A stretch of 64,000 bases of DNA from an uncultured Staphylococcaceae bacterium (GCA_964410505.1 CAYPGR010000003.1:31809-95808); one strand, 5' to 3'. Shown: positions 27,785 to 47,451, counted from the first letter of the stretch. Translations and numbers: made by a program. Notes: a model not told the origin generated them from the letters alone.

Positions 27785-29053
27785 TTAAAATAAGTCGTCG
27801 CCGGTAATACTCCGGGTCCGCTTGCTGTAATTGATCGACCGTTTGACAAAGAAGTCGACATGTTTGGTGGCGACGACTTCGTCATCAAACCAGTCAGTGG
27901 CTTTAACTGCTTCCTCATCAACGGGGAAAAGCCGTTCATAACCAATACTCACTAATGAGTTATTTAGTCTATTCTTCACAAATTCTTTGACAACGCTTTT
28001 AGGCATAAAGTCAAGATCACCTTTTTCATAGATCCAGTCGATGACAACTTCTTCCGAGCGATACGCTTCTAAGCACGCTTTACGAACCGCTTCTTTCATG
28101 TCGTCATCAAACCATTCTGGATGTTCATTTCGAATAATGTTAATAAGATCAATCCCAAAAAGACCGTGGATTTGTTCTTCTTTTGACGTCGCTTCAATCG
28201 CGTTTGACATCCCTTTAAAGAGGTTTTTAAATTTGTTAAACGCCATGATAATTAAAAACTGGGAAAATAATGAGACATGTTCGATAAAAAGGGAGAATAA
28301 CAGCACCGAAAGTGTAAAATCACGTTCACTGCTTGATTTTGCTAGATGGGTGGACTTCGTTAAGTAATCGACCCGCTGCATTAGTTCGGGAATATCTTTA
28401 AGTTTTAAAAATTCATCATTGAGACCGAGAATTTCTAAAAGGTGGGAATAGGCATCATGATGACGGACTTCACTTTCCGCGAAAGTGTAACCAACCGAAC
28501 CAATTTCTGGTTTTGGCATCTTGTGATAGAGGTCACCCCAGAATGTTTTAACTGCAACTTCCACTTGGGCAATCGCAAGCATCGCATTTTTTATAACACT
28601 TCGTTCGCCTTCGCTGACATTAACCATAAAATCTTGAATATCTGATGTATAGTTAAATTCCGTATGGAGCCAATAAGAATGTTGAATGGATTCTTTATAT
28701 TTAGCAAGTTCAGGATATTCATAAGGTTTTAGATTTAAACGAAATTTAAAAATATCGGGACGCCGGGCTTGGTTTCTTTTTTCGCGGTAGATAATAAACG
28801 CCTTGGCAGTCTTTTTATATGTTGATTCAAGTAGGACTGTTTCTACATAATCTTGAACCTTTTCAACCGTTAAAGTTTCGTAATCATTATTCGTCACGAT
28901 TAAATCTAATACGCGGGCAGTTAAGAGTTCGGTTTCTTCTAACGAAAACTCTCCTGTCGCCATTCGCGCTTTATTGAGGGCAGTAAATATCTTATGAGAA
29001 CGGAAAGGTTCAGTGGATCCATTGCGTTTCACAATGAGGGTTGGTAGTTTCAT
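27785..29053 (-). CDS. nrdB: ribonucleotide reductase radical-generating (beta) subunit with an N-terminal ATP-cone domain
   Basis: N-terminal VKRNGSTEPFRSHKI ATP-cone of about 90 aa. Ferritin-like ExxH metal ligands (ESEVRHH, EEQIHG). Confidence 0.75.
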   Translation of the reverse strand: MKLPTLIVKRNGSTEPFRSHKIFTALNKARMATGEFSLEETELLTARVLDLIVTNNDYETLTVEKVQDYVETVLLESTYKKTAKAFIIYREKRNQARRPDIFKFRLNLKPYEYPELAKYKESIQHSYWLHTEFNYTSDIQDFMVNVSEGERSVIKNAMLAIAQVEVAVKTFWGDLYHKMPKPEIGSVGYTFAESEVRHHDAYSHLLEILGLNDEFLKLKDIPELMQRVDYLTKSTHLAKSSSERDFTLSVLLFSLFIEHVSLFSQFLIIMAFNKFKNLFKGMSNAIEATSKEEQIHGLFGIDLINIIRNEHPEWFDDDMKEAVRKACLEAYRSEEVVIDWIYEKGDLDFMPKSVVKEFVKNRLNNSLVSIGYERLFPVDEEAVKATDWFDDEVVATKHVDFFVKRSINYSKRTRSITGDDLF

Positions 29054-29357: not shown

Positions 29358-31223
29358 TTAGTTAAATCTCATCATTAATCTTTCTTTTATATAATCGTTT
29401 AGTGCTTTATCTTCACAAAAAATGAAACAACCTTTTTGACCTCGTGATAACAATGTTTTATATGTATTACGAATTATTCGATCAGCTAGTTCATAGTTTT
29501 TTGAAGACTTAATTCCTTTGAGGCTTGCGTCCGACTTAGCTCGCATTTTATAATCTGTGATAACGCGACCTTCTTCAAACCTCATATCTTTTCCGATGAT
29601 AATCCCGACATAGTCAAACTCTAAACCTTGTGCTGTGTGAATGCACCCCACTTCATCAAATGAATCTTCGTCAATCGCCCAAGTGCTTGTGGAAGAAAAG
29701 TTCCATTTAGCTTTAAATCCATTGATGAGATTAATGTCATAGAGTTGGTGAGTCGGTTTATTTTTCGTCACCCACTCATAACAATAGCCTGCAATCATCC
29801 TTGCTTTATTGTTGATATGGTTTAAGTTTCGTAATTCTTCTCTCATCAAAATAGGGTCATCAAAAACACGAATATCATAATCTAAATCGAAACCATCGTA
29901 GTTAGCAGTTTCTCTGATTCCTAGTAAATGATCTAAAAATGCAATATAACCATCACTACCATTACATCTAAATTGTGAGGTGAGTTTAAAGTCATCACCA
30001 CTAAAAACTTTACTACCAAGACGTTGCGCTTGTTTCTTAATTTCTAAAATACTGCCAAAATCCTTCGTAGTAACAATCTGATCCTCGTCGATGAAGAAGA
30101 CACTCACGCGTGCCGCATTAATGATTTCTCTAATTTGGTTTTCGCCTAAATTCATAAACATTCCCGATTTCTCGTTGAGTCGGTGCGCCTCATCTACAAC
30201 TAAGCAATCAAACTCATTTGGTTTCGAATCAACATAAGCTCCTGAGCCCTTAAACATATTTTTAACATAATTTAGCTTGTAATTTCCTTGTCGCATTTTG
30301 TTGAAATAGACATTTCGTGGAGCAGCATTCTTTGTAACATAATTAACCATCATACTCTTAAACTCTGCTAAAAGATTGATCGCAATTACACTTTTACCCG
30401 TTCCAGGTCCGCCCTCAACAATTACCGTATACTTATTATTTGTCTTAATAGCATCTTCAACTAACTTCTTAACGGTTGAAAAGACGACTTTTTGTTCATC
30501 AATCATATAAAATTCTTGATTACCAGCGATCATCGAAACAATCGCATCTTGAAGGGCTTTAGAAGGTCTAATTTTCCCATGATCAATTTGGTAAAGAACT
30601 TCACCATTGTCAGATTTTGAAACATATTTCTTAATGAACTCTCTTAATTTTAATACGTCTCTTTTTAAATACATCGGTGAAACTTCCAAAATATCTTTAT
30701 ATAGATCGTTGTCGAGTTCATGTCTGAACTCTTCTCGAAAGTTATGTAAAAAACAGCAAGGATACAATTGAATTTCACTATTTTGAACGAATTCATTATA
30801 ATTTTCGATTGTCTTGGCGTATGAATAAGCTTGATAAGAAGGATGCGTAACTGCACGCATTGAACCGGCCAGGAATGTCGTTACAATGTCTTTACGACTC
30901 GTTCTTTGAGCTTCTTCCCATTGCTTTAATTCAACAATAACAACATTACTATTATCTGACTCATCTTTTCCGGAAATAATAAAATCGACTCTTTTTGAAG
31001 TAGCAGGAATTTGATATTCAATCGCCACGCGAATGTCTGTATTAATCTCATTAAAATCTAACACATTTTTCATATGTAAAAGAGAGTTGTCCCAAGCACG
31101 AAACTCAGATTCGTTATTGTTTATGATGCTTCGTTTTCTTAGTTCGGATTTAATTAATTCGGCAATAATCCCATTATCAACATCACTACTAAACTTTGCA
31201 ATTGTTCCTGAGTATACAATCAT
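29358..31223 (-). CDS. DUF2075-like protein: an N-terminal PD-(D/E)xK nuclease fold fused to a P-loop SF1-type helicase/ATPase
   Basis: RVDFIISGKD...VVIVELKQW (D...ExK). Walker A GGPGTGKS. Walker B LVVDEAH. C-terminal HTAQGLEFDYV, an SF1 motif VI-like sequence. Confidence 0.65.
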   Translation of the reverse strand: MIVYSGTIAKFSSDVDNGIIAELIKSELRKRSIINNNESEFRAWDNSLLHMKNVLDFNEINTDIRVAIEYQIPATSKRVDFIISGKDESDNSNVVIVELKQWEEAQRTSRKDIVTTFLAGSMRAVTHPSYQAYSYAKTIENYNEFVQNSEIQLYPCCFLHNFREEFRHELDNDLYKDILEVSPMYLKRDVLKLREFIKKYVSKSDNGEVLYQIDHGKIRPSKALQDAIVSMIAGNQEFYMIDEQKVVFSTVKKLVEDAIKTNNKYTVIVEGGPGTGKSVIAINLLAEFKSMMVNYVTKNAAPRNVYFNKMRQGNYKLNYVKNMFKGSGAYVDSKPNEFDCLVVDEAHRLNEKSGMFMNLGENQIREIINAARVSVFFIDEDQIVTTKDFGSILEIKKQAQRLGSKVFSGDDFKLTSQFRCNGSDGYIAFLDHLLGIRETANYDGFDLDYDIRVFDDPILMREELRNLNHINNKARMIAGYCYEWVTKNKPTHQLYDINLINGFKAKWNFSSTSTWAIDEDSFDEVGCIHTAQGLEFDYVGIIIGKDMRFEEGRVITDYKMRAKSDASLKGIKSSKNYELADRIIRNTYKTLLSRGQKGCFIFCEDKALNDYIKERLMMRFN

Positions 31224-35393: not shown

Positions 35394-36266
35394 TTATTCA
35401 ATTTCTTCGTAATAATATGAAGTATCAACGCCTTTTAAAAATAGTTCTCTATTGTCAATCTCATCAGTCAAAGCGTTTTTAAGTATTCTTTTAATGTCCT
35501 CATCACTATTTGGACTAAGAGTCATCGCATCTAAATATTCTTTTTTCTCAATTTTTGACCAATCAACACAAACGCTCAATTCTTTCTTAAAGATTAAATC
35601 GACCCAAATACGTGTTGCCCGACCATTACCTTCCATGAAAGGGTGTGCAACATTCATTTCAATATATTTATTAACAATTTCATCAAATGTTGATTGCGGC
35701 ATTTTTTCAATTTCTCCTAAAATTTGAGGTAGAAAATCACCATTTGCAAAAACAAAACCACCTTTAGAAATCGTTTTGGTCCTTATCTTTCCAGCGAATG
35801 GGTATAGACCTTCAAATAGAAACGCATGTATTTTTAGGAGGCTGATTGTTTTCCCAATTTCATCATCTTGAATAAGATTTGATTTGAACACTTCATAGGC
35901 TTTTCTTTTGCTTTGCTCATCAAGGGGATCTAACATTCCGGTTAGCCAATTTTGAACAGCTAATTTATGTTTGGATGGCATGATTGTTACAAATAGACGC
36001 ACACCTTCTTCATTCATAACATCCGATAGGTATTTCTTGTTATCAGCAGCATATAATTTCAGTTGTCCACAAAATGAAGTCAACTCAGGATGTCTCATTT
36101 TAAACATGTTCCAATATCTTCTAGCATCACTAGAATCTAAAAGCACTTTTGTTAAATCAACAGCGGAGTACCACCATTGAGATTTGTCATGATCCCAAAC
36201 AGCTCTAACTGGTTGATTATTAAAATAGCGAATGGAATGTTTTATCATAATTAGATGATATAACAA
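35394..36266 (-). CDS. Fic-family protein (AMPylase fold) with an N-terminal Bro-N-like domain
   Basis: Fic motif HPFMEGNGRATR. N-terminus IRYFNNQPVRAVWDHDKSQWWYSAVDLTKVL resembles Bro-N. The annotated start is a TTG; an ATG lies 18 nt downstream. Confidence 0.7.
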   Translation of the reverse strand: MLYHLIMIKHSIRYFNNQPVRAVWDHDKSQWWYSAVDLTKVLLDSSDARRYWNMFKMRHPELTSFCGQLKLYAADNKKYLSDVMNEEGVRLFVTIMPSKHKLAVQNWLTGMLDPLDEQSKRKAYEVFKSNLIQDDEIGKTISLLKIHAFLFEGLYPFAGKIRTKTISKGGFVFANGDFLPQILGEIEKMPQSTFDEIVNKYIEMNVAHPFMEGNGRATRIWVDLIFKKELSVCVDWSKIEKKEYLDAMTLSPNSDEDIKRILKNALTDEIDNRELFLKGVDTSYYYEEIE

Positions 36267-36336: not shown

Positions 36337-36892
36337 AATCTAATGGAATTGTGTGACAGAAACGATTCAAAATCTAATTTGCGTTATTGAGAGTGATTGT
36401 GCTCCTCCCCTGGTCAACCTCCAATGTTTACAGGGGAACAATGTTGATTATGATGGCTATGACTATAGAAAATCGTTCTAGAGTCTAAAAAAATCCTCAA
36501 AAAAAGAAAAAAGTGTCCAAATAAAAAAAGGACTGATATTTATATATCAATCCAATCTCTCATTTTTGGAACCACACGTTTAGTTTGATACTTTGAATAC
36601 CCTAATAATTAACGAGTGAATACCTCTAGAACTATGATTCTTTTTTGACGCTATTTGACATAAGTAACGAATTTACTTTAAGGTGAACTGATACCAAAAA
36701 CCTGTACTTTAACTTCCTTGTAATTACTACATGGTTTATAGATAAATCACTCTATACTCATAAATCCTTTAGCTGTAAATGCCATCATATAAATGTAGGA
36801 AATTGACGGTCGAAAATGTAGGTTTCTTACGGGTATGCTTTTCTTTTTGATAAACTTTTTCTAACTCACGATTAGAAAGGTTTAGAAATTAA

Positions 36893-38095
36893 ATGAGAAG
36901 AGACTTATATGAAAGGATGGTATTTATGAAAAACCATGGTGAAGAGCCAAATTATGCCGAACTAGCTCGCCGCTATAACTGCGACTATCGGACGGTAAAA
37001 CGCTACTTTGAGGGTGACGGATCACTCAAAGAGAGAAAAAAGAATCCGTCGAAACTTGATAAATTTAAAGAAATTATTGAGGATAAACTGGAACTTGGTT
37101 GTACGTATGCTTCAATCTATCACTTTATTAAAAAGCTTGGTTATGACGGTAAGTATACAATTGTTCGTGAATATGCGAATAAAGTGATAGTGATCAAAAC
37201 AAAGAAAGCAACCGTTCGTTTTGAAACGATGCCAGGATTACAAGCACAAGTTGATTGGAAAGAACACCTAACCATGATTAGTCGTGAAGGCGAGGTCTTC
37301 ACCGTGAATATCTTCCTTCTTGTTCTTGGTTATTCACGTTTAAAATTTCTAAAGCTGACCCTTGACCGTAATCAAGACACTCTAAAGGAGGCGCTGGTAG
37401 AAGGGTTCAAGTATATAGGTGGAATTCCAAAAGAGATTCTCTTCGATAATATGAAAACTGTGATTGATCAAAGTCGTTCGCACTTCATGGACGCGGTTGT
37501 TAACGAGGACTTCTACGCCTTTAGTAAGGATATGGGTTTCGAGGTAATTGCTTGTCGCGCTTATCGCCCCGAAACAAAGGGAAAAGTTGAAGCACTCGCT
37601 AAGTTTACAAGCCGCCTTCAACCTTACAACCACGACTTTGTTTCCCTTGATGAATTAAATGAAATTGTCAAAATGGTCAATGATGACATAAATCACGAAA
37701 TATCCCAAGCGACAAACGAAATCCCTCTCACTCGTCATAAAAATGAAAAAGAATACTTATTACCCTTACCACGCGCTGAACTTCTTCTTAACTTCCTTAC
37801 TAAACCACTAACAAGAATCGTTACGAAGGAGTCACTCATTACGTATCAGAATAACAAATATTCCTTGCCCCCTTATTATATCGGAAAAACTTTAACGATT
37901 AAACCATCCGCTGTTAACCTCGATATTTTTGATAACGGTGTCCTCATTATGCGCCACCCCCTCTCAAATAAAAAATACAACTACAAAAAAGAACATTATA
38001 TTGAAATTCTTAAAAGTGATGCCCTCCCCTTTAAAAATGATGATGATATTAATCGCATCGCCGAAAAGAATTTAAAACTCTACGATAATCTCTAA
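36893..38095 (+). CDS. istA: IS21-family transposase IstA
   Basis: N-terminal HTH (ELARRYNCDYRTVKRYF). DDE region typical of IstA. Confidence 0.8.
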   Translation: MRRDLYERMVFMKNHGEEPNYAELARRYNCDYRTVKRYFEGDGSLKERKKNPSKLDKFKEIIEDKLELGCTYASIYHFIKKLGYDGKYTIVREYANKVIVIKTKKATVRFETMPGLQAQVDWKEHLTMISREGEVFTVNIFLLVLGYSRLKFLKLTLDRNQDTLKEALVEGFKYIGGIPKEILFDNMKTVIDQSRSHFMDAVVNEDFYAFSKDMGFEVIACRAYRPETKGKVEALAKFTSRLQPYNHDFVSLDELNEIVKMVNDDINHEISQATNEIPLTRHKNEKEYLLPLPRAELLLNFLTKPLTRIVTKESLITYQNNKYSLPPYYIGKTLTIKPSAVNLDIFDNGVLIMRHPLSNKKYNYKKEHYIEILKSDALPFKNDDDINRIAEKNLKLYDNL

Positions 38096-38112
38096 AAGGA
38101 AAGAACACCAAA

Positions 38113-38868
38113 ATGTCCCATTATAATCAACTTATTAATAATTTAGATAACCTTAAACTCTTGAAAATGCGCGAACTCCTTCCCGCTTATCTTGATGATG
38201 CTATTATTAAAAACAAATCATTTGTTGATATTTTTAAAGAACTAACCGATCAAGAAGTTGCTTTCCGCGAAGAACGCGCACGCCTTATTAATCTTACTAT
38301 TTCGCATTTCCCCTATCACAAACGTCTCGATGATTTTGATTTTGGCTACCAACCGTCCATTAATAAAACCCAGATTCTCGATCTTGCTTCGCTTCGCTTT
38401 GTTGAACAGGTTGAAAATATCCTCCTTATCGGCAACTCCGGTGTCGGCAAAACGCACCTTGCTACCGCGCTTGGCATTGAAGCTTCCAGTAAACGCGTCT
38501 CGACCTATTTTATCCACTTTAATACACTCATGCAAAAGTTTAAAGTCGCCGCGAGTGAAGGTACCGTCGACAAAGTTGTTAAACATTATCTAAAATACAA
38601 ACTGCTTATCGTCGACGAAGTTGGCTATCTTCCTGTTGATAAAGATGCCGCGAATGGTTTCTTTCAGCTTGTCGCCGCTCGCTATGAAAGACGACCGCTA
38701 ATTATTACATCAAATTTACCACTTTCTAAATGGGGCGATGTCTTTGGTGATTATACAATCGCTAACGCTATTATTGATCGCCTTGTTCATCATTCTCACA
38801 TTATCAAAATAACCGGGCAATCCTACCGCATCAAAGGTAAACTCCAATTTGAAAATGACGAGGACTAG
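38113..38868 (+). CDS. istB: IS21-family helper ATPase IstB
   Basis: Walker A GNSGVGKTHLA and Walker B LLIVDEVGY. 17-nt spacing after istA. Confidence 0.85.
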   Translation: MSHYNQLINNLDNLKLLKMRELLPAYLDDAIIKNKSFVDIFKELTDQEVAFREERARLINLTISHFPYHKRLDDFDFGYQPSINKTQILDLASLRFVEQVENILLIGNSGVGKTHLATALGIEASSKRVSTYFIHFNTLMQKFKVAASEGTVDKVVKHYLKYKLLIVDEVGYLPVDKDAANGFFQLVAARYERRPLIITSNLPLSKWGDVFGDYTIANAIIDRLVHHSHIIKITGQSYRIKGKLQFENDED

Positions 38869-39088
38869 TCCTCGTCATTTACCTACATTTTCAACCGCTA
38901 TAAACCAACATAAATTTCTTGACAATTACAAATACGCACAGTTGTATAGACCGTTGGAATGAGCCCCATTAGCAATAAGGCAAGTAGGAGGCGGTAATTT
39001 ATTTTTTTAATTGATTTAGATATATTGCGCATCATTAATCTTTATTTTAGCAATGTATTTAAAGGAAAAATAGATATTTTTTTTATAG

Positions 39089-40084
39089 TTATTCTTGATA
39101 TCCCAGTTTTATTAATAACCCACCAATTAATGGACAGATGTTATTTGAGTTAGTTAACAAACTATTAATACCCAATAAGGAACATATTTTATTTGCTCTG
39201 CGTTTATTAGTATCTATGTAGCAGGTGGATACTCTATCTACATGCAGGGTTATTTTCCACTTGTTATCTGTTGTTTGTTCCTCTTTAAACATAATTTGCT
39301 GTACTAGTTCATGGATTTTCAATTTATATAATATTTCTTTTCCATTATTCTCATTTAAGCCAATAAGAAAATCTTTAATGGCGATTTCTTCTTTATTCTC
39401 TATTATTTTCTCATGGGCTAGGCTAGCGGCTTGTAAGAGTGCATCTACTTTAGTATCAGAAATTCCCTCTATCTCATAATTGCCAAACTTTATTGTTGCC
39501 CTATAAAAACCGTTGCCCTTGTTCTCGAGGAGCTTAAAAGAATAGGTTAACTTATTATGTTTTTTTACTTTGCACCATCTTTTAACATATAAAAAAGAGG
39601 CAAACCCTTTGTAATTAATTTGTGTTCTATGAAACAACAAATTATTCACTAAATCGTAAAGCTTAATTTGATTAAAATTAGAATCAATAGCGATGGAGCC
39701 TACAACGCTCTCGAGTAAATCTCCTCTATAAGATCTTTGGATTTGTTCATTAGGGCTTAATCTAATATAGTGTTCGAACCCCAACTTATGTATGATAGAA
39801 GCGAGATTTTCATTCTCGACAATTAGTGATTTAAGAAATGTCAATTCTCCTGGATTAAATACGCTTTTTAGACCTTGACTATCATTTGACATTATTTGAT
39901 CAAATAGAATTTTTGTAACGTGATATTCGATGACTCTATCACCAATAAATTCTAGTACTTCAGAATTAAGCTCTTTTGATTCATTTGAAAATGAACTTCT
40001 CGTAAATGCTTGTCTCAAAAGCGCTTTATTTTTGAATTCGTAATCTAATTCTTTTTCAATTTGAATAATATCTTTTTCATCCAC
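39089..40084 (-). CDS. RNase III-family protein with two C-terminal dsRBD-like modules
   Basis: RNase III signature ALLRQAFTRSS...EVLEFIGDRV. Second catalytic segment GDLLESVVGSIAID. dsRBD-like segments GNGFYRATIKFGNYEIEGISDTKVDALLQAASLA and NKWKITLHVDRVSTCYIDTNKRRANKICSLLG. Confidence 0.55.
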   Translation of the reverse strand: MDEKDIIQIEKELDYEFKNKALLRQAFTRSSFSNESKELNSEVLEFIGDRVIEYHVTKILFDQIMSNDSQGLKSVFNPGELTFLKSLIVENENLASIIHKLGFEHYIRLSPNEQIQRSYRGDLLESVVGSIAIDSNFNQIKLYDLVNNLLFHRTQINYKGFASFLYVKRWCKVKKHNKLTYSFKLLENKGNGFYRATIKFGNYEIEGISDTKVDALLQAASLAHEKIIENKEEIAIKDFLIGLNENNGKEILYKLKIHELVQQIMFKEEQTTDNKWKITLHVDRVSTCYIDTNKRRANKICSLLGINSLLTNSNNICPLIGGLLIKLGYQE

Positions 40085-40184
40085 AATGACAAATCAATCC
40101 CCTAGAGTAAATTTATTATGATAAAACTATTTTTTAAGGCGACCTTTAAGAATCAACACTTTCGTTAATTTTAAGAACCATCAG

Positions 40185-41213
40185 TTAATTAGTAACTTCA
40201 GGTATCTCCGTTAGTCTTTTTCCATTAAATTTAAAATAAAGAGGGCCTTGATATGCTCCACTACTATTCACCTTTCCTAAACGAGTAAATAGTTCTCTTG
40301 TTAATGGCGATAAGTACCAGAGCCTACCTTCAAACATGACTTTTCGTTCATTTTCAACATAGGCAACAAAGGACTCGTTTTCAGCAAAGACAATCTCCGC
40401 CCCTTTTTTAATACCTCTTTTAAAGAAATTAAAACGCGTATTGACTTCTTCTCCATTCGTCTTATCTACCTGCTCATTGCCGCTATTTTTAATGTCTCTA
40501 GCAGCGCCAGATACAGAAACCTCAGTAATATCTTCAATGATTTTGACAAATTTAGATAATTTAATACCTTTTCCTATTTCAACATTCAAAAAATCTTTAC
40601 CTGTGGCTTCGAAGGCGAGATTTTTAATAGAATAATTTTTTAAATCATCTCCATACCGGATGCCAAACATATGCAGCATAGTCATTTGATAGCCATCAGG
40701 AGCCTCATTGTACATTTTTTTTAAAATTTCCAAGTATTCATTATAGGTCAAATGACCATTTCCTTTTGGGAGGTCTTGGAATAGAAAATTTTGTATTATT
40801 TTCTTGTTTTCTGGCCAGGCTTTAATATCCGTGAGTTGTATACTTTCAGAGTCAAAATCGAAAAATAAAAATGGGAGATTGTCTTTAGAAATCTTGAGTA
40901 AATTGTCAATATTCTTTTTTGTTTTTCGTTTGTTTTCATGGAATTTATTTGATTGCACGCTGGACATTTTCAGCAAAGTATTAAAATCGTTTGTATTTTC
41001 AATGCTAAAGTTGGAATCAAGAAAATGATTAATCGTTTCAAAAATAGCAATGTCATATATCCTATTTGATTTACTCTCCCTGATATATTTTTTGATAATT
41101 TGAGCAACTATATCATCATATGTAATTTTGACAGAATATGGATCCATCCTTTCGTCTATCAGGTCAATCAATGCACTAAAGACGTTTCTTTGGAGCGTAT
41201 TTGCGGTTTGCAT
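40185..41213 (-). CDS. hypothetical protein (342 aa), co-operonic partner of the SMC-like ATPase
   Basis: ORF. 1-nt gap to the upstream 119-aa gene. Confidence 0.4.
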   Translation of the reverse strand: MQTANTLQRNVFSALIDLIDERMDPYSVKITYDDIVAQIIKKYIRESKSNRIYDIAIFETINHFLDSNFSIENTNDFNTLLKMSSVQSNKFHENKRKTKKNIDNLLKISKDNLPFLFFDFDSESIQLTDIKAWPENKKIIQNFLFQDLPKGNGHLTYNEYLEILKKMYNEAPDGYQMTMLHMFGIRYGDDLKNYSIKNLAFEATGKDFLNVEIGKGIKLSKFVKIIEDITEVSVSGAARDIKNSGNEQVDKTNGEEVNTRFNFFKRGIKKGAEIVFAENESFVAYVENERKVMFEGRLWYLSPLTRELFTRLGKVNSSGAYQGPLYFKFNGKRLTEIPEVTN

Positions 41214-41214
41214 A

Positions 41215-41574
41215 TTAAATTATATCCACTATGGTCCAATCTTTATTATTATTGATGATATCCAGTATCTTATCTAAACCTATACTTATTACTGCTCTAA
41301 GTGCATAATCTTCATCTTTTACGTCATCATGATACAACCTAATTAACGTCCTAAAAAATTTGTCACCATCAAAATCTTCCATATGCCATTTGTTGTTTTT
41401 AAAACTGCCTTTGTATTCGTCTAGTGGCTTGTACTGGCTTAAATCAACCCTAGACAAGGCGTAACTAGCTGCAAATTTCGCTGTCGTCTTATCGTCATCA
41501 AAATATCCTTTTTCTTTAAGTTTGGCAATGCATTCATCATTGTCAACTGAAATGTTAATATCTGCTAGTGGCAT
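41215..41574 (-). CDS. small hypothetical protein (119 aa), co-operonic partner of the SMC-like ATPase
   Basis: ORF. 1-nt gaps on both sides. Confidence 0.4.
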   Translation of the reverse strand: MPLADINISVDNDECIAKLKEKGYFDDDKTTAKFAASYALSRVDLSQYKPLDEYKGSFKNNKWHMEDFDGDKFFRTLIRLYHDDVKDEDYALRAVISIGLDKILDIINNNKDWTIVDII

Positions 41575-41575
41575 A

Positions 41576-43600
41576 TTATTTCTCCCTTACATTGGTATTG
41601 AAGGAATTTCCTTCTTGATATATCTCTAATTCCTTTATTAGTTTATTACCTAAAATTGCTCTGGTTTTACTAATATCAATTTTGTCGTTATGAATCAGCA
41701 AAATCAACTGTGGTGCGATTTCATTAAATGTTTTTATTATGTTGTTTGTGTATGAATTTTGAAGAACTGAAAAGGCTGCATCAAAAAATATGGTGCCAAA
41801 TAATTGAGAGTTGTGGTTTAAACCAAAAATTAATGATAATGCTAATAAAGTATTGTATCCCGTTCCGGGAATGGGCATAATTGAATCGTCCTTCATTACA
41901 ATTTTCATGCGATAGTTTTCATTTATATGAATTTGTTTAATATCTTGATTTTCGCCCTCGATAAATTTCATGAAAATATCACTTGAAGAAATTTGAACTT
42001 TTTGTCTCATGGTAGAGATAAACTGTTCTTTAGAATTTTTGTAGGTCGTTCGCACATGATCAATTGTCTTAAGTTCATTTTCAAGATCACTAGTATCAAA
42101 ATCAGTTCCCATTTTCTTTATTAGAGCTGTAATTTTTCCATTTAATCTTTCATAATCTTTAATCAGGTTTTCATTTAGCGTTGTCTCCCATTTGCTGATT
42201 AGATTTTCTGACTGAGTTTTTTTCATAAATGCGTCCTTAAAATAGGTGTTTAAATCTGAGCCGCTTGAACTTAATTCATCACGTGTTTTTTTAGCATCGT
42301 TAAGAAGACTATGTCTTTTATTTTCGTACATGATTAAATCTTCTTGGTAACTTCTTAGCGTTTTGTCGTTAAAAAATGTCAGTTCAGAAAGTATTTTAGT
42401 AAATTTGACTATTTTATTGTTGGAATATTCATATGAAGTCATCTCGTCGCTCGATAAGGAACTTTGAGAGATTTTAAACTTGATTTCATCAACCTTGGAT
42501 TTAAAGAAAACTATTTTTTCTAAGGGTAAGTGACTACCACAATACTGACAAGTATCATTATTCAGTAGATCCTCATATGTTTTTAATTCAACTCTAAATT
42601 TATTAATTATTTGGTGTCGGTCGGAGATAAGAGAGAATTTTTCTTCCATCGTTTTAATCTCTTGTATAATTTTCGAATATTGCAGAGATTTTATATTTTC
42701 TTTTAGAAAGTTTTTAATGTCCGTTTTTCTTGATTTAATCAATGCTTCAGTGGAATTAATCTCTTTTTCAATTTTTTCCAAGTATTTGTAGGCAGCGATT
42801 TTTCTACCATTAGCGTCAAGATCTTCATTTAAACGAGTTAACTCCTCTTTTTCCTTTTCAATTTTCCTGTTTAAATCGTCAATCTCTTTCTTTTTTAAAC
42901 TCAATTCTTGTTGCTTATCCTGCAATTCTTTCTTGTCATTTTCATTTTTTGAATTTCTATTTACGATGGAAGAAATTTGATAATAGGTTTGACTATAAAG
43001 ACTGTCTAAACGAGCAATGATTCTATCAATAAATGGGGTTCCGATAATCTTGTTAATAGCTTCTTTAATTCTTCTATTTTCAGTGCCAGTAGCACTATCA
43101 TTGTTGAGAATTTCAATGTATTTTTCAATGTTTTCTCCATCAAAAAGCATAAATTCAGAGATGTCTTTTGGAATTATTTTATCAATGATATCTTGTGTAT
43201 ATTTCTCTGATTGATATTGACCATCTTCTTGCAATGTCATCGTCATCTTAAAATCATTGTCTGATTTAGGTTTTCCCATCACGTTTGAGTCAAAATTATA
43301 CTCTCTTTTCATCTTGTAAGTTTTACCATTATAGATAAACTCCATATATGCATAGAATCTATAATCTTCATTCTCGTAAGCAATTTTGTTTATAGATAAT
43401 GAAATTTTATAATTTGGGTCGTCGGGATTGTCTTTAAGATAGTTAAAAAGCAAAAACCGAATACCATTGATAAATGAAGTCTTTCCAGTATTATTATTAC
43501 CAAAAATTATAGAGGTTCCTTTATTAGATCCTAAATCAAATTCCTTGACTCCATAGTAGGGAATAAAGTTTTTGAATGATATCTTGAGTATCTGTATCAT
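41576..43600 (-). CDS. SMC/Rad50-like ABC ATPase with a long coiled-coil and a central CxxC hook-like motif
   Basis: N-terminal Walker A GNNNTGKTS. Long K/E-rich helical middle region. CQYC near the midpoint. C-terminal Walker B / D-loop IFFDAAFS. Confidence 0.7.
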   Translation of the reverse strand: MIQILKISFKNFIPYYGVKEFDLGSNKGTSIIFGNNNTGKTSFINGIRFLLFNYLKDNPDDPNYKISLSINKIAYENEDYRFYAYMEFIYNGKTYKMKREYNFDSNVMGKPKSDNDFKMTMTLQEDGQYQSEKYTQDIIDKIIPKDISEFMLFDGENIEKYIEILNNDSATGTENRRIKEAINKIIGTPFIDRIIARLDSLYSQTYYQISSIVNRNSKNENDKKELQDKQQELSLKKKEIDDLNRKIEKEKEELTRLNEDLDANGRKIAAYKYLEKIEKEINSTEALIKSRKTDIKNFLKENIKSLQYSKIIQEIKTMEEKFSLISDRHQIINKFRVELKTYEDLLNNDTCQYCGSHLPLEKIVFFKSKVDEIKFKISQSSLSSDEMTSYEYSNNKIVKFTKILSELTFFNDKTLRSYQEDLIMYENKRHSLLNDAKKTRDELSSSGSDLNTYFKDAFMKKTQSENLISKWETTLNENLIKDYERLNGKITALIKKMGTDFDTSDLENELKTIDHVRTTYKNSKEQFISTMRQKVQISSSDIFMKFIEGENQDIKQIHINENYRMKIVMKDDSIMPIPGTGYNTLLALSLIFGLNHNSQLFGTIFFDAAFSVLQNSYTNNIIKTFNEIAPQLILLIHNDKIDISKTRAILGNKLIKELEIYQEGNSFNTNVREK

Positions 43601-43794
43601 ACGTTTGACCTTTTCTTGTTGTAAGAATCAATTAGTTGCTTAATGCTATTGTTTTTTTCTTGATCGGAGGCATTATTAAGTTCAATATCTAGAATATTTG
43701 TCAACAGCAAAAAATAATTTTCATCAGCATTTGACATTTCCTCCAAAGTTTCTTTAATGTTTTTAATCGTTTTTTCATTCATCTTCAAAACCAT
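43597..43794 (-). CDS. small ORF (65 aa), translationally coupled between the helicase and the SMC-like ATPase genes
   Basis: ATGA overlap with the downstream gene start. Overlaps the upstream gene's stop by 20 nt. Confidence 0.3.
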   Translation of the reverse strand: MVLKMNEKTIKNIKETLEEMSNADENYFLLLTNILDIELNNASDQEKNNSIKQLIDSYNKKRSNV

Positions 43795-46132
43795 CCTCTT
43801 CGTTATTTATTTTTTCAATATCTAAATTGTTTTTTATTGCCAATTCCTCAATACTCAACATAGATGTGGCACTATTAAATGAAGCCTTGGCAAAAATTAT
43901 TGCTCTTTTCAACTCGTACTTTAAAAATGTGAATTCATCTCCGGAAGATTCCAGATTTTCAGGCGAAACAATCGCATCAAAAATATGGGCAAACTGTTTG
44001 TTTTTATGCTTTCTTAATACCCTCCCACGTCTTTGAATAAATTGTCTCTCATTTTGACTTGAGGCCAGCACTAAGGCATGGTCTATGCTGGGAATGTCAA
44101 CTCCCTCATCCAAACAATTAATTGACAGTAAAACTCCTCCATTTCTCTCGAAAACTTCAAGAACTTGGTTATGTAACCCACTCTTTGAATGATAAATAAA
44201 CAAGTCGTTATGAAACAATCTACTAAGTTTTGATTCAAGTTGGTTCTTGATTTCTTCTAACTGTTCAATGTCATCACAGTATATTAACCATCTTTGACCT
44301 GGAAGATAATGGTCTTCAATAATCTTAAGGGTCAACAAAATTTTAGCCTTAGCTTTTTTGATAATTTTTGATCTTTGGATTAGCCATTGCTTCATAATTG
44401 AATCAGATAAAATATCGAAAATTGAGTATTTTTGAGATTTGAGCAATGCAAATCTGCGAGCAATTTTGGTTGATAGTTCTTGATATTCAACGCCCTCTAT
44501 AAGATCAAGTTCAACTTTTTGGGGGTAATAAAGATAATTGCATAAAGATTTATCTCTAATAGCATTTTCTAAAGAATAAGGATAGTCGATAACCTTTCCA
44601 AAAAAATCAAAGATCTTTTTTGTTCCAATTGAGTCTCTATACCTTTTAGGAGTAGCGCTCAACCCTATCTTTGAACCCACATTGATGGTTAATAAATTAC
44701 TGTATTTTTCCGATCCAGAATTATGAACTTCATCAATCACCAGCAACAAATGATTTCCTTGGCAAAGTAAGTTAATAAAATTGTTATTGCTAGCTGTTTG
44801 GATTGTACTTAAAATAATTTTTCTTTTGCCTGTAATTGAGGAAGCAATCTTGAGATTTGTAGTGCTGTCATTTCCATTCCCATATTGATACAAGAATACA
44901 TCGTCGCCGAATACTTTTTCAATTTCTTCTTTCCACTGTTCAAATAAAATGCTCCTTGGCACAATTATAATTGGGATTTGATCATGGAGATAAATGGCAT
45001 CTCTAATTGCGCAAAAAGCAGTAAATGTTTTTCCGCTTCCCGTGGCCATTTCAAAAATTCCGACTCGATTGTTTTTAACCCAATTATCAAGAATGGTCTC
45101 TTGGTAATTCCTTATCTTACGGCGGTTTAGCCCCGGCTCTGCCGCCCATCTAATTACTGTAATTTCTCGCTCGTCCAATGTTTGATTTGTGTAGTTGGAC
45201 TTGAGAACTATTTTTTGATTTCCATAAGAAATAGCTTGAATTGTGTGTTTATCATTATCTAATACAAGTATTTTATGGTCATCAACAAGTTCAATGACTA
45301 CATCATTAAGACTAGAACAATGTAAAACCCCAATTTTAGCAACTTCGCCAAGAACCAAATCAGAATATTGTATGTCAATTCTTGGCGATTTTTCATCAAT
45401 ATGTCCTAACTCAATTGTGACCTCATCGATTAATTCACGGACATTTTTGTCGTTACTGAGCGCACGAAATTTATCTTTCGTAACTTTCGGAATTTCAAAA
45501 GTATGAATACCTTTTTCATCTCCTCGCCAAATGTTATTAAATCTTTCTTTGTAAATACTAACTCTTTTAATCTCTGATGCATCACCCCAGGAAGTATTAA
45601 CCTCAAAGACTTCACTATTGCCAAATTCTGAGACACCTTTGTAAGTTTCATTGATTGATCCACCAAAACTAACTGTGTTCCCATTTACATCATGAAATAA
45701 ACCAACTTTATCGTGAAGCAGTTTGAATGCCAAAGGGTTGTCGCCAAAAACCGCCATTTTTATTTCAAGTATTCCCAATGAGATTAGATTAGAAAGTAAA
45801 GTTGTAGTTTTAGGATATTGCTTGCTCATTTCATCAATAACTTCATTGAATTTATTTGATGAGGAATCTAGTGATTTAAAATACCCGGAAATTATGGCGT
45901 CATAATCCTCGTCAGTTATTATAGGGGAGCATACAATACGTATTTTTCCATTATTTTGAACAAAATCTTTTAAGGCATCCTTGATAACAAGGAAAACAGA
46001 ACTGCCAAAATAGCCCGTGATTCTATCATATTTAATTGAAGATTCTAAACAGGGTTTATAAAAATCTCGATAGATTTCATTTCTAGTTTTGTAATATATT
46101 TGGTGAAAATTATGCTTGTCGAGGGTTTGCAT
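43775..46132 (-). CDS. restriction-type enzyme: N-terminal PLD-family (HKD) nuclease fused to an SF2 (type III res-like) helicase
   Basis: PLD motif LLHDKVGLFHD...GGSINET. Helicase motif I MATGSGKTFTA, motif II LLVIDEVHN, motif III LSATPKR and motif VI QRRGRVLR. The start is assigned to MQTLDK, 7 nt after the methyltransferase stop. Confidence 0.7.
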   Translation of the reverse strand: MQTLDKHNFHQIYYKTRNEIYRDFYKPCLESSIKYDRITGYFGSSVFLVIKDALKDFVQNNGKIRIVCSPIITDEDYDAIISGYFKSLDSSSNKFNEVIDEMSKQYPKTTTLLSNLISLGILEIKMAVFGDNPLAFKLLHDKVGLFHDVNGNTVSFGGSINETYKGVSEFGNSEVFEVNTSWGDASEIKRVSIYKERFNNIWRGDEKGIHTFEIPKVTKDKFRALSNDKNVRELIDEVTIELGHIDEKSPRIDIQYSDLVLGEVAKIGVLHCSSLNDVVIELVDDHKILVLDNDKHTIQAISYGNQKIVLKSNYTNQTLDEREITVIRWAAEPGLNRRKIRNYQETILDNWVKNNRVGIFEMATGSGKTFTAFCAIRDAIYLHDQIPIIIVPRSILFEQWKEEIEKVFGDDVFLYQYGNGNDSTTNLKIASSITGKRKIILSTIQTASNNNFINLLCQGNHLLLVIDEVHNSGSEKYSNLLTINVGSKIGLSATPKRYRDSIGTKKIFDFFGKVIDYPYSLENAIRDKSLCNYLYYPQKVELDLIEGVEYQELSTKIARRFALLKSQKYSIFDILSDSIMKQWLIQRSKIIKKAKAKILLTLKIIEDHYLPGQRWLIYCDDIEQLEEIKNQLESKLSRLFHNDLFIYHSKSGLHNQVLEVFERNGGVLLSINCLDEGVDIPSIDHALVLASSQNERQFIQRRGRVLRKHKNKQFAHIFDAIVSPENLESSGDEFTFLKYELKRAIIFAKASFNSATSMLSIEELAIKNNLDIEKINNEEDGFEDE

Positions 46133-46139
46133 TTTCGTC

Positions 46140-47006
46140 CTACACTGGATTCCGATTTGAAATATTATGAATAGACATCTGACAAAACTCTTCAGAAATT
46201 TCAAAACCGATAAATTTCCTGTTATTATTAAGCGCGACCACTCCAGTTGTTCCACTTCCAGTCCATGGATCAAGTACGATATCGCCCTCCTGCGTACATG
46301 CTCGAATATACCTTTCGGGCAAGTAATTCGGTTGGACAGCTTGATGATTGACCACTTTTCCTGATACTGCACCACTAATCACATTTATCGGTAATGCACC
46401 TAGAGGGTTAGGAAAAATTTTCTTTTCTTTTGTGACATATTGCAATTTATTCTGCCTTGGTTTATAAATCACATTCTCATAGGATTTGATAGAAGATTCT
46501 TTGTAAGGTCTTCTAATCTGATCTATATTGATAACCCATTTTGAGGATTTAGAAAACCACAGGTTATACTCATAAGCATCAATCGTCGCAACTCTTACTC
46601 CTGTGGGAACAGGATTTGTTTTTGCCCAGATTTCAATATCAACACAATACAATTTTAGTACCTTTTTCATATGAATCATTAGTTCTTCGATGACTAACGA
46701 TCGCTCCGATGATGTGGTTTTTGTTCCTTGAACTCGATTTGATTTGACATTAATGACAATAAATCCATCATCAGTTAATTTTGGAATTAAAAACTTAATA
46801 AATGGGCTTATTTCTTTTATATAGTTTTCAATCTTCCATGTTCTATAGTTTCTTTTTGCATTTGGATAAGGAGGTGACCCATAAACTAATTTTATGGACT
46901 TATCTTTCAGATGCTTTATGAGTTTTACACCGTCTCCGTGGGTAACAGAAAAATTACGACTATCTAAATCTTCGTATATGTTGATAGTAGTATTTTGGTG
47001 TAACAT
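46140..47006 (-). CDS. beta-class DNA methyltransferase (N4-cytosine / N6-adenine type)
   Basis: Motif IV GSPPYPN near the N-terminus and motif I LDPWTGSGTTGVVA near the C-terminus. Confidence 0.8.
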   Translation of the reverse strand: MLHQNTTINIYEDLDSRNFSVTHGDGVKLIKHLKDKSIKLVYGSPPYPNAKRNYRTWKIENYIKEISPFIKFLIPKLTDDGFIVINVKSNRVQGTKTTSSERSLVIEELMIHMKKVLKLYCVDIEIWAKTNPVPTGVRVATIDAYEYNLWFSKSSKWVINIDQIRRPYKESSIKSYENVIYKPRQNKLQYVTKEKKIFPNPLGALPINVISGAVSGKVVNHQAVQPNYLPERYIRACTQEGDIVLDPWTGSGTTGVVALNNNRKFIGFEISEEFCQMSIHNISNRNPV

Positions 47007-47364
47007 TTAATTAATACTCCCCACTTTATATAAAAATCTTTTTATGTAATTCAAATTATACCATCATACACGGTATTAAAGAACTGTATACTTATCAAAT
47101 TGATGATTTTGAGTGGTGAATTAAATAGAAAACACAAAATAAACAACAAAAATAAACGCACATTGCACAATGGGACAGTTAATATTCTTACTAATTAACC
47201 CTCTTTTTCGCACTGTTTATTAAGAAATTGAAAAAAATACTCTTTCTATTTAATCTTTGATATCTAACGAATCATAAGAAATATATTATACTTGAATATC
47301 CTAAGAAAAAACCCTTATATCTCAACCTTATTAGGTCCAATATCTTGGGGTATCTTCATTAGTT

Positions 47365-47451
47365 TGGTGCCTCCGGTCGGACTCGAACCGACACAGTATC
47401 GCTACTATTGGATTTTGAGTCCAACGCGTCTACCAATTTCACCACGGAGGC
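47365..47451 (-). tRNA. tRNA-Leu (anticodon CAA), long variable arm, CCA encoded
   Basis: Reverse complement is GCCTCCGTGGTGAAATTGGTAGACGCGTTGGACTCAAAATCCAATAGTAGCGATACTGTGTCGGTTCGAGTCCGACCGGAGGCACCA. Confidence 0.85.

Follow-up and report, generated by a model that had tools for sequence, protein, structure and literature searches.

A probable methylation-based PbeABCD-type defence operon of six genes in an uncultured Staphylococcaceae bacterium

Introduction

What kind of defence system is encoded where the gene for a small methyltransferase is followed directly by the gene for a fused nuclease-helicase? We address this question for a 64,000-nucleotide (nt) stretch of DNA from an uncultured Staphylococcaceae bacterium (GCA_964410505.1 CAYPGR010000003.1:31809-95808), the whole of which is referred to here as the window. 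An initial annotation treated the methyltransferase and the 785-amino-acid (aa) fusion protein as a unit, read them tentatively as a fused version of the NgoAVII/CglI restriction-modification systems, and considered the combination uncommon. We find instead that four more genes follow the pair, separated by gaps of at most 1 nt or overlapping, and we conclude, with a probability of roughly three in four, that all six together form a defence operon that is based on methylation and belongs to the PbeABCD (CxC-ABC-ATPase/DndE) family. Every sequence feature given in the initial annotation was confirmed at its stated position.

PbeABCD was described in haloarchaea as the restriction partner of DndCDEA phosphorothioation (Xiong 2019, PMC6459918). 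In the classification of Rakesh 2024 (PMC10853773), PbeA is an HKD nuclease fused to a superfamily 2 (SF2) helicase, PbeB is a small protein that evolves rapidly, PbeC is an ABC ATPase bearing a "CxC" zinc hook, and PbeD is a cognate of DndE and has two ribbon-helix-helix domains. Methyltransferase genes lie near 155 of the 320 pbeAC pairs without dnd genes (Xiong 2019, PMC6459918), and "circularly permuted cytosine-N4 methylases," often accompanied by an MTaX1 gene, as well as C5 methylases, are reported in CxC-DndE systems (Rakesh 2024, PMC10853773). A methylase-linked form of PbeABCD has already been predicted computationally.

Results

The 785-aa protein is a PbeA with an extra domain

PADLOC identifies the 785-aa protein as PbeA (E = 2.3e-183). 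The NCBIfam model TIGR04095, "DNA phosphorothioation system restriction enzyme," also matches it (2.4e-96, below the cut-off of the model), and the NCBIfam matches for this protein and the ATPase encoded two genes downstream, PbeC, are TIGR04095 and DndD. The mechanically called open reading frame (ORF) extends to a GTG at 46375 (866 aa); the N termini of homologues fit the ATG that yields 785 aa. An AlphaFold2 model of the protein, with a mean predicted local distance difference test (pLDDT) score of 86, consists of an alpha/beta N-terminal domain (residues 1 to 243), an all-beta domain, and a two-lobed helicase.

The N-terminal domain carries the single HKD motif of the phospholipase D (PLD) family that the initial annotation had pointed out, as HDKVGLFHD (residues 140 to 148) and GGSINET (157 to 163). 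Across 52 PbeA homologues, H140, D141, K142, D148, G158, N161, E162, and T163 are invariant, and S159 is nearly so. Searched alone, the N-terminal 245 aa match Pfam PLDc_2 at 7.5e-6 (26.3 bits, just below the cut-off of 27); PLDc_2 also matches 11 of 14 PbeA homologues, and the model NF042964 (phospholipD_antiphage) matches the N-terminal domain at 6.4e-23. Against all Protein Data Bank (PDB) sequences, a profile of the PLD domain gave nothing above noise (best E = 0.57); it hit no nuclease, and no NgoAVII, BfiI, or Nuc chain was among the matches.

The region between nuclease and helicase, previously given as a middle region of unknown fold, turns out to be a confidently modelled domain. Residues ~250 to 327 form nine beta strands and no other secondary structure class, at pLDDT values of 85 to 95, and the equivalent inserts in two relatives (P0005 and P0002) match Pfam Big_2 at 6.2e-6 and 2.3e-4, respectively, identifying an immunoglobulin (Ig)-like domain of the Big_2 type. 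In alignments this segment is a clean insertion of ~85 aa relative to PbeA proteins of ~700 aa, and it is shared by the PbeA of the window and the six relatives nearest to it, at 49 to 55% identity.

To gauge how rare the architecture is, PbeA residues 1 to 335 were compared with 1.84 billion cluster representatives (clustered at 50% identity). There were 2,745 matches at an E value of ≤1e-3 and 1,561 at ≤1e-10; with these numbers, and with methylase linkage already on record in PMC6459918 and PMC10853773, the combination can no longer be called uncommon. Among the best 150 of the 1,561 clusters, alignment continues past residue ~260 in P0064, P0005, and the fragment P0140 only; for the remainder, the alignment ends with the PLD domain and the proteins are ~700 aa long.

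The C-terminal half is the complete SF2 helicase with a DEVH motif that had been noted earlier, with GSGKT at residues 365 to 369, DEVH at 467 to 470, SATP at 492 to 495, and QRRGRVLR at 700 to 707. Pfam ResIII (8.8e-27; confined to the N-lobe of the helicase, residues 339 to 497) and Helicase_C (1.1e-11) both match; a B3-like domain, for which the initial annotation had proposed a search, finds no Pfam match. With the full-length model as query, the top Foldseek match in the PDB was SauUSI (7clg; E = 8e-18, 747 aligned columns), and the next PDB matches were XPB-type helicases, the nearest solved helicase cores. Only short helices follow the helicase core at the C terminus. Motifs, Pfam matches, and the match to SauUSI all agree that a PLD nuclease and an SF2 helicase are fused in one polypeptide.

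Other helicase-containing systems were considered and rejected. A Type III restriction-modification enzyme does not fit: the nuclease of PbeA is an N-terminal PLD domain rather than a C-terminal PD-(D/E)xK domain, ResIII covers the N-lobe only, and the methylase has only 288 aa, unlike the large Mod subunit of Type III systems, which brings its own recognition domain. Readings as DISARM, Type I, Type III, or Cas3 scored weakly in comparison with PbeA, at the level of the helicase alone for Type III, DISARM, and Cas3.

The methyltransferase is inherited together with PbeA

The gene upstream of pbeA encodes a protein that Pfam N6_N4_Mtase matches at 1.2e-42. Its SPPY motif (residues 44 to 47) precedes motif I (DPWTGSGTT, residues 246 to 254), the order of the beta class, in agreement with the earlier assignment to the N4C/N6A type. 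The best solved full-length relative is the N4-cytosine enzyme M.PvuII (1boo; 1.4e-17), while N6-adenine enzymes align only in part. From the SPPY motif and the likeness to M.PvuII, N4-methylcytosine (m4C) is probably the better guess for the methylated base.

The TAG stop codon of the methyltransferase lies 7 nt before the ATG of pbeA, as stated in the initial annotation, and an AGGA that overlaps the stop is a candidate ribosome-binding site. Because of this spacing and the position of the AGGA across the stop, tight coupling of the two genes is plausible.

To place the pair among its relatives, we scanned one genome per species with an alignment, which gave 59 loci, and the closest metagenomic homologues added thirteen; a genome scan with a single PbeA sequence had yielded no confirmed relatives. 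ORFs were called in all related loci and searched with the window proteins and with profiles built from neighbouring genes. In ~45 related loci, an orthologous methylase is encoded directly or one gene upstream of PbeA. Pairwise identities of methylase and PbeA are correlated at r = 0.95 (n = 41 loci, Mantel p = 0.0005), a value that is inflated by shared phylogeny and so shows co-inheritance but is no proof of functional coupling; for comparison, r is 0.96 for PbeA-PbeC and 0.92 for PbeA-PbeD. Xiong 2019 found a correlation of only 0.107 for DndCD versus PbeAC (PMC6459918). The co-inheritance at r = 0.95 removes the possibility that the methyltransferase belongs to an unrelated system, and the methylase is a genuine partner of PbeA. 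No DndC (PAPS-reductase) or DndA domains were found in the cassette neighbours or the larger window ORFs scanned, which places the operon in the methylase-linked branch of the family.

These data also bear on a reading suggested by the structural match, in which PbeA would be a SauUSI-like Type IV, modification-dependent PLD-helicase enzyme lying beside an unrelated methyltransferase. SauUSI, which is ATP-dependent and the best solved match to the full-length PbeA model, likewise joins an N-terminal single-HKD PLD domain to an SF2 helicase within a single chain (identity only 14%), and PADLOC returns a weak mREase_IV match (7.3e-14); the PbeA score (2e-183) is far better. SauUSI also has its own C-terminal target-recognition domain, attacks modified DNA, and acts alone without a cognate methylase, whereas PbeA ends just after the helicase without a C-terminal target-recognition domain. 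The conservation of the upstream methylase in ~45 loci is hard to square with an attack on methylated DNA, and we find a Type IV enzyme barely credible here.

PbeB, PbeC, and PbeD complete the cassette

The next gene overlaps the 3' end of pbeA, and its stop codon overlaps the start of the following gene (ATGA). It encodes a small acidic protein in the position of PbeB, where nearly all related loci with PbeA and PbeC have an acidic ORF, typically of 65 to 80 aa, longer in actinobacterial loci and with a shared helical pattern. PGAP calls the product of its counterpart a "DNA modification system-associated small protein."

The 674-aa ATPase that follows is matched by PADLOC PbeC at 4.1e-79 and by DndD at 5.9e-29. 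At least 95% of 52 sequences keep its Walker A GKT and two cysteines halfway along the protein, C351 and C354; this CxxC pair is a predicted zinc hook.

For the 119-aa protein encoded directly after the ATPase gene, sequence searches were uninformative: a profile of 29 sequences found only noise in the PDB, and among the 29 members Pfam gave a single DndE match, at E = 0.11. Its identification as a DndE-like tandem ribbon-helix-helix protein came from structure comparison only, and the predicted structure, together with the position of the gene, suggests that this protein is PbeD. PbeB, PbeC, and PbeD are kept with PbeA in every locus with a long enough contig.

The cassette decides against a self-contained, ATP-dependent restriction-modification system of two genes, formed by fusion of the R (PLD) and N/H (helicase-like ATPase) proteins of NgoAVII/CglI, with the adjacent methyltransferase as the only partner and unrelated genes downstream. 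The ingredients of such a system are present and tightly linked, and NgoAVII/CglI likewise bring together a nuclease of the PLD family, an SF2-like ATPase, and a methyltransferase. In those systems, however, R and N/H are separate proteins, R carries a B3-like domain, and there are no PbeB, PbeC, or PbeD partners; here the B3-like domain is absent, the middle domain is Big_2, and sequence similarity to the PbeA PLD domain is undetectable, the PLD-domain profile having found neither an NgoAVII nor a BfiI chain in the PDB. The NgoAVII/CglI methylases are C5-cytosine enzymes, whereas the methylase of the window belongs to the N6_N4 type. The genes downstream either overlap PbeA or follow one another at distances of no more than 1 nt, are conserved where the contig allows, and, for PbeC and PbeD, diverge along with PbeA at the correlations given above. 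Finally, all four pbe genes are needed in the archaeal system (PMC6459918). Together with the PADLOC score for PbeA and the PbeB-PbeC-PbeD operon, these results lead us to abandon the fused NgoAVII/CglI reading, which we now consider highly improbable.

An HTH_73 gene takes the place of MTaX1 in a minority of related loci

Comparison of the related loci revealed two main layouts. The common one, found in ~50 loci, is [methylase 2]-methylase 1-MTaX1-PbeA-PbeB-PbeC-PbeD, in which the second methylase is usual but not constant and the MTaX1 genes match Pfam PF20296 at 1e-18 to 6e-20. The layout of the window is single methylase-PbeA-PbeB-PbeC-PbeD-HTH_73, which occurs in nine distinct systems (the window, L001, L002, L062, L064, L067, L071, L072, and L073); the PbeA proteins of the other HTH_73-layout loci are at most 55% identical to that of the window. 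The sixth gene of the window starts 1 nt past the PbeD stop, and its product matches Pfam HTH_73 at 4.3e-20 over residues 157 to 225.

Among the related loci examined, HTH_73 and MTaX1 never occur in one locus. A profile made from 48 MTaX1 genes of related loci matched none of the window cassette proteins, there was no MTaX1 match in the 12 kb around the cassette, and a second methylase is absent from it. The possibility that the HTH_73 protein is a divergent MTaX1 was rejected (hhalign probability, 0.1).

The HTH_73 proteins share a conserved N-terminal region and the HTH_73 core and vary at the C terminus, where some have an HRDC domain and some have extensions of ~400 aa. In the window, the C-terminal ~120 aa (residues ~224 to 342) are 73% identical to the C termini of T5orf172/MUG113 proteins, which are GIY-YIG-like, ~210 aa long, and equivalent to the PADLOC candidate PDC-S57; the last 63 residues are a nearly exact match to these proteins. 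This tail looks like the product of a recent domain swap between defence-associated genes.

Other methylase-linked loci, among them some with the common layout, have different genes after PbeD: a ~440- to 590-aa sigma-70-like protein with regions 2 and 4 (L003, L035, L037, L038, L039, L057, L059, and L074) or an SfsA-like nuclease of ~230 aa (L009, L019, L023, L026, L028, L047, L051, and L052). The site downstream of PbeD seems to accommodate variable accessory genes.

Within the HTH_73-type loci compared for identity (the window, L001, L002, L062, L064, L067, L069, L071, and L072), the methylase is 56 to 66% identical to the window copy, PbeC 22 to 54%, and PbeD 26 to 66%; in those without the Big_2 insertion, PbeC falls to 22 to 29% and PbeD to 26 to 36%. 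Set against the steady methylase, this drop indicates that PbeC and PbeD, the predicted scanning pair, have diverged far more rapidly than the methylase has.

The HTH_73 sixth gene, the lack of MTaX1, and the Big_2 insertion define an uncommon sub-variant. The original description of the CxC systems is reportedly that of Krishnan et al. 2020. Neither the HTH_73 nor the Big_2 feature is mentioned in the accessible text of PMC6459918 and PMC10853773, a statement that covers neither the supplementary tables nor Krishnan et al. 2020. We tentatively propose, at somewhat less than even odds, that the window represents an undescribed sub-type of methylation-coupled Pbe systems, consisting of one methylase of the N4-cytosine type, PbeA (which may or may not carry Big_2), PbeB, PbeC, PbeD, and HTH_73, in which the HTH_73 protein, though not homologous to MTaX1, would perform the function that MTaX1 and the second methylase have in the common layout, presumably in DNA recognition or reading of the modification.

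A proposed mechanism and its alternatives

By analogy with its relatives, a six-gene PbeABCD-family operon could work as follows. The small methyltransferase, most likely an N4-cytosine enzyme, would mark a short motif in host DNA. PbeC and PbeD would form an ATP-driven complex that binds and scans DNA, and PbeA would be the effector, with its SF2 motor translocating along DNA at the expense of ATP. The single-HKD PLD domain of PbeA would pair with that of a second copy to complete an active site, and this dimeric site would nick, cut, or obstruct DNA without the mark. PbeB may be a required small regulatory or bridging subunit, and the HTH_73 protein and the Big_2 insertion, which stand in place of the MTaX1 and second methylase of most relatives, would probably provide DNA recognition, discrimination of the modification, or subunit contacts. 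In a bolder version of the sub-type proposed above, PbeC and PbeD may steer the methylase, so that a scanning complex and not a free enzyme would place the methylation, as is the case for phosphorothioates.

A related alternative assigns PbeC and PbeD to modification altogether: they would scan host DNA and direct the methyltransferase, as DndD and DndE do in phosphorothioation, methylation might be sparse or patterned, and PbeA, PbeB, and HTH_73 would form the separate restriction arm. It is attractive in that DndD and DndE, to which PbeC and PbeD form the sister clade, are part of the modification module, that the methylase is small, and that in HTH_73-type loci it is more conserved than either PbeC or PbeD. 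Yet M.PvuII-like beta-class methyltransferases are autonomous, sequence-specific enzymes. Moreover, deletion of pbeA, pbeB, pbeC, or pbeD alone while phosphorothioation was still expressed impaired protection (PMC6459918), which puts PbeC and PbeD in the restriction arm of the archaeal system. We therefore consider a purely modification-related role unlikely.

Nor do we favor abortive infection, in which PbeB would hold PbeA inactive until a phage trigger releases it to attack host DNA, with the methylase ancillary or in a different role. Rakesh 2024 raised this alternative, proposing that the small, rapidly evolving protein is a negative regulator released by viral factors (PMC10853773). The tight co-inheritance of methylase and PbeA, however, fits marking of self and non-self, for which a suicide module has no evident need, and pre-modified virus escapes in the archaeal system (PMC6459918), so that it is the DNA of the invader that is discriminated. 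A suicide mechanism seems very unlikely on these grounds.

Several points weigh against the methylation-based PbeABCD operon itself, in addition to the share of shared phylogeny in the identity correlations. We infer every functional step from homology, including the methylated base and its motif, the reader of the mark, and cutting by PbeA, and sequence cannot settle between m4C and N6-methyladenine (m6A). The PbeD model, built from 5 sequences, is of moderate confidence (pLDDT, 72). In the Walker B/D-loop region of PbeC (residues 605 to 615), the subclade of the window (the window, L001, L002, and partly L005) has FFDAAFSVLQ where relatives have MDSPFGRLD; because it is conserved within the subclade, this change is not decay, and the ATPase behavior of these PbeC proteins may differ. 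No experimentally tested methylase-linked Pbe system was found in the literature searched. The archaeal DndCDEA-PbeABCD system, which requires host modification as well as its pbe genes, halts viral DNA replication with no cleavage detected, and loss of modification is not toxic (PMC6459918); both observations argue against a simple restriction-enzyme model. Cleavage could nevertheless occur, because the nuclease motifs are intact, and Rakesh 2024 also argues for cleavage by the HKD nuclease (PMC10853773).

Genomic setting

The operon lies in a stretch of ~30% GC, from ~39,000 to 47,300, that contrasts with ~40% GC in the flanks and is bordered by a tRNA-Leu gene on one side and an IS21-family element on the other (Table 1). 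All genes of the low-GC stretch are on the minus strand, and the first six, from the methylase to HTH_73, are spaced by at most 7 nt or overlap. Promoter and terminator scans across the island gave counts at chance (41 found versus 44 expected and 2 versus 2.9, respectively) and so do not give the operon boundaries. The 3' end of the tRNA-Leu gene has no direct repeat, and the search for an integration site gave no convincing att-like repeat.

Table 1 Positions of the operon, its predicted domains, and neighbouring features in the window
Feature	Position	Strand	Description
tRNA-Leu	47365-47451		Border of the low-GC stretch
Methyltransferase, 288 aa	46140-47006	-	Beta-class; putative modification component
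PbeA, 785 aa	43775-46132	-	PLD nuclease, Big_2 insertion, and SF2 helicase
PbeA residues 1-243	45404-46132	-	Single-HKD PLD nuclease domain; HKD conservation, PLDc_2, NF042964
PbeA residues 250-327	45152-45385	-	Big_2-type Ig-like insertion, restricted to a small subclade; model and Pfam Big_2 in relatives
PbeA residues 339-768	43829-45118	-	SF2 helicase/translocase; motifs I, II, III, and VI present and invariant
PbeB, 65-aa ORF, probably 61 aa from ATG at 43782	43597-43794	-	Small acidic protein
PbeC, 674 aa	41576-43600	-	ABC ATPase with coiled coil and predicted CxxC zinc hook
PbeD, 119 aa	41215-41574	-	Predicted DndE-like tandem ribbon-helix-helix DNA-binding protein
Sixth gene, 342 aa	40185-41213	-	HTH_73-domain protein
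C-terminal tail of the HTH_73 protein	40185-40550	-	T5orf172/MUG113-like
RNase III-like protein, 331 aa	39089-40084	-	100 nt downstream of the HTH_73 gene
IS21-family element	36774-38930		istA 36893-38095, istB 38113-38868; 50-nt imperfect terminal inverted repeats
Fic-domain protein	35394-36266	-	PADLOC PDC-S04
Schlafen-group-3/DUF2075 helicase	29358-31223	-	Weak PDC-S41, AbiO, and Nhi matches
Ribonucleotide reductase small subunit	27785-29053	-	N-terminal ATP-cone
Ribonucleotide reductase large subunit, 556 aa	26094-27764	-	No clear ATP-cone

The RNase III-like protein has an RNase III domain, a weak double-stranded RNA-binding motif, and a C-terminal extension of ~100 aa, and it scores below the NCBIfam RNase III cut-off (103.6 versus 166). 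As a seventh component it was rejected for now, in view of the 100-nt gap; it is probably outside the system, because no other Pbe cassette has it as a neighbour.

Farther downstream, a Fic-domain protein matches the PADLOC defence candidate PDC-S04 (9.6e-118), and a Schlafen-group-3/DUF2075 helicase gives weak matches to defence models. From 29 kb to 47 kb, the DNA may form a loose defence island. Next to it, a ribonucleotide reductase small subunit has an N-terminal ATP-cone (6.2e-20), while the adjacent large subunit has no clear one; an allosteric ATP-cone domain on the small subunit is an unusual placement.

Discussion

The window encodes, with good probability, a methylase-linked member of the PbeABCD family. 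Like the methylase-linked CxC-DndE systems (PMC6459918, PMC10853773), it has an HKD-SF2 PbeA with a small acidic PbeB, a CxxC PbeC, and PbeD directly downstream, and a circularly permuted beta-class methylase of the N4-cytosine type upstream instead of dnd genes. It differs from the ~50 related methylase-linked loci in having neither MTaX1 nor a second methylase and in its HTH_73 sixth gene, and from methylase-linked CxC-DndE systems in the Big_2 domain between nuclease and helicase and the altered Walker B/D-loop of PbeC.

The same four pbe genes occur in the same order and with similar sizes in the DndCDEA-PbeABCD system of Haloterrigena jeotgali A29 (PbeB, 66 aa versus 61 to 65 aa here; PbeD, 152 aa versus 119 aa). 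There the host is an archaeon and the mark is phosphorothioate, made by DndCDEA; here the source is a metagenome-assembled genome of the Bacilli, and the mark would be methylation by a single methyltransferase.

The finding opens no new category. Pbe-type systems are widespread, the PLD domains of the PbeA type alone making up over 1,500 clusters (50% identity), and the literature searched contained only one tested Pbe system, which is archaeal, linked to phosphorothioates, and blocks replication without visible cleavage. In public records, the parts carry bland labels: "DEAD/DEAH box helicase family protein," "AAA family ATPase," and "DNA modification system-associated small protein." For annotation, a "DEAD/DEAH box helicase family protein" beside a small N6_N4 methylase should prompt a look for PbeB, PbeC, and PbeD downstream. 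Methylase-linked Pbe systems would be easier to study, since the mark is readable by single-molecule real-time (SMRT) or nanopore sequencing and the methylase is one small gene. The mutually exclusive MTaX1 and HTH_73 genes offer a natural comparison, which could reveal the reader of the modification.

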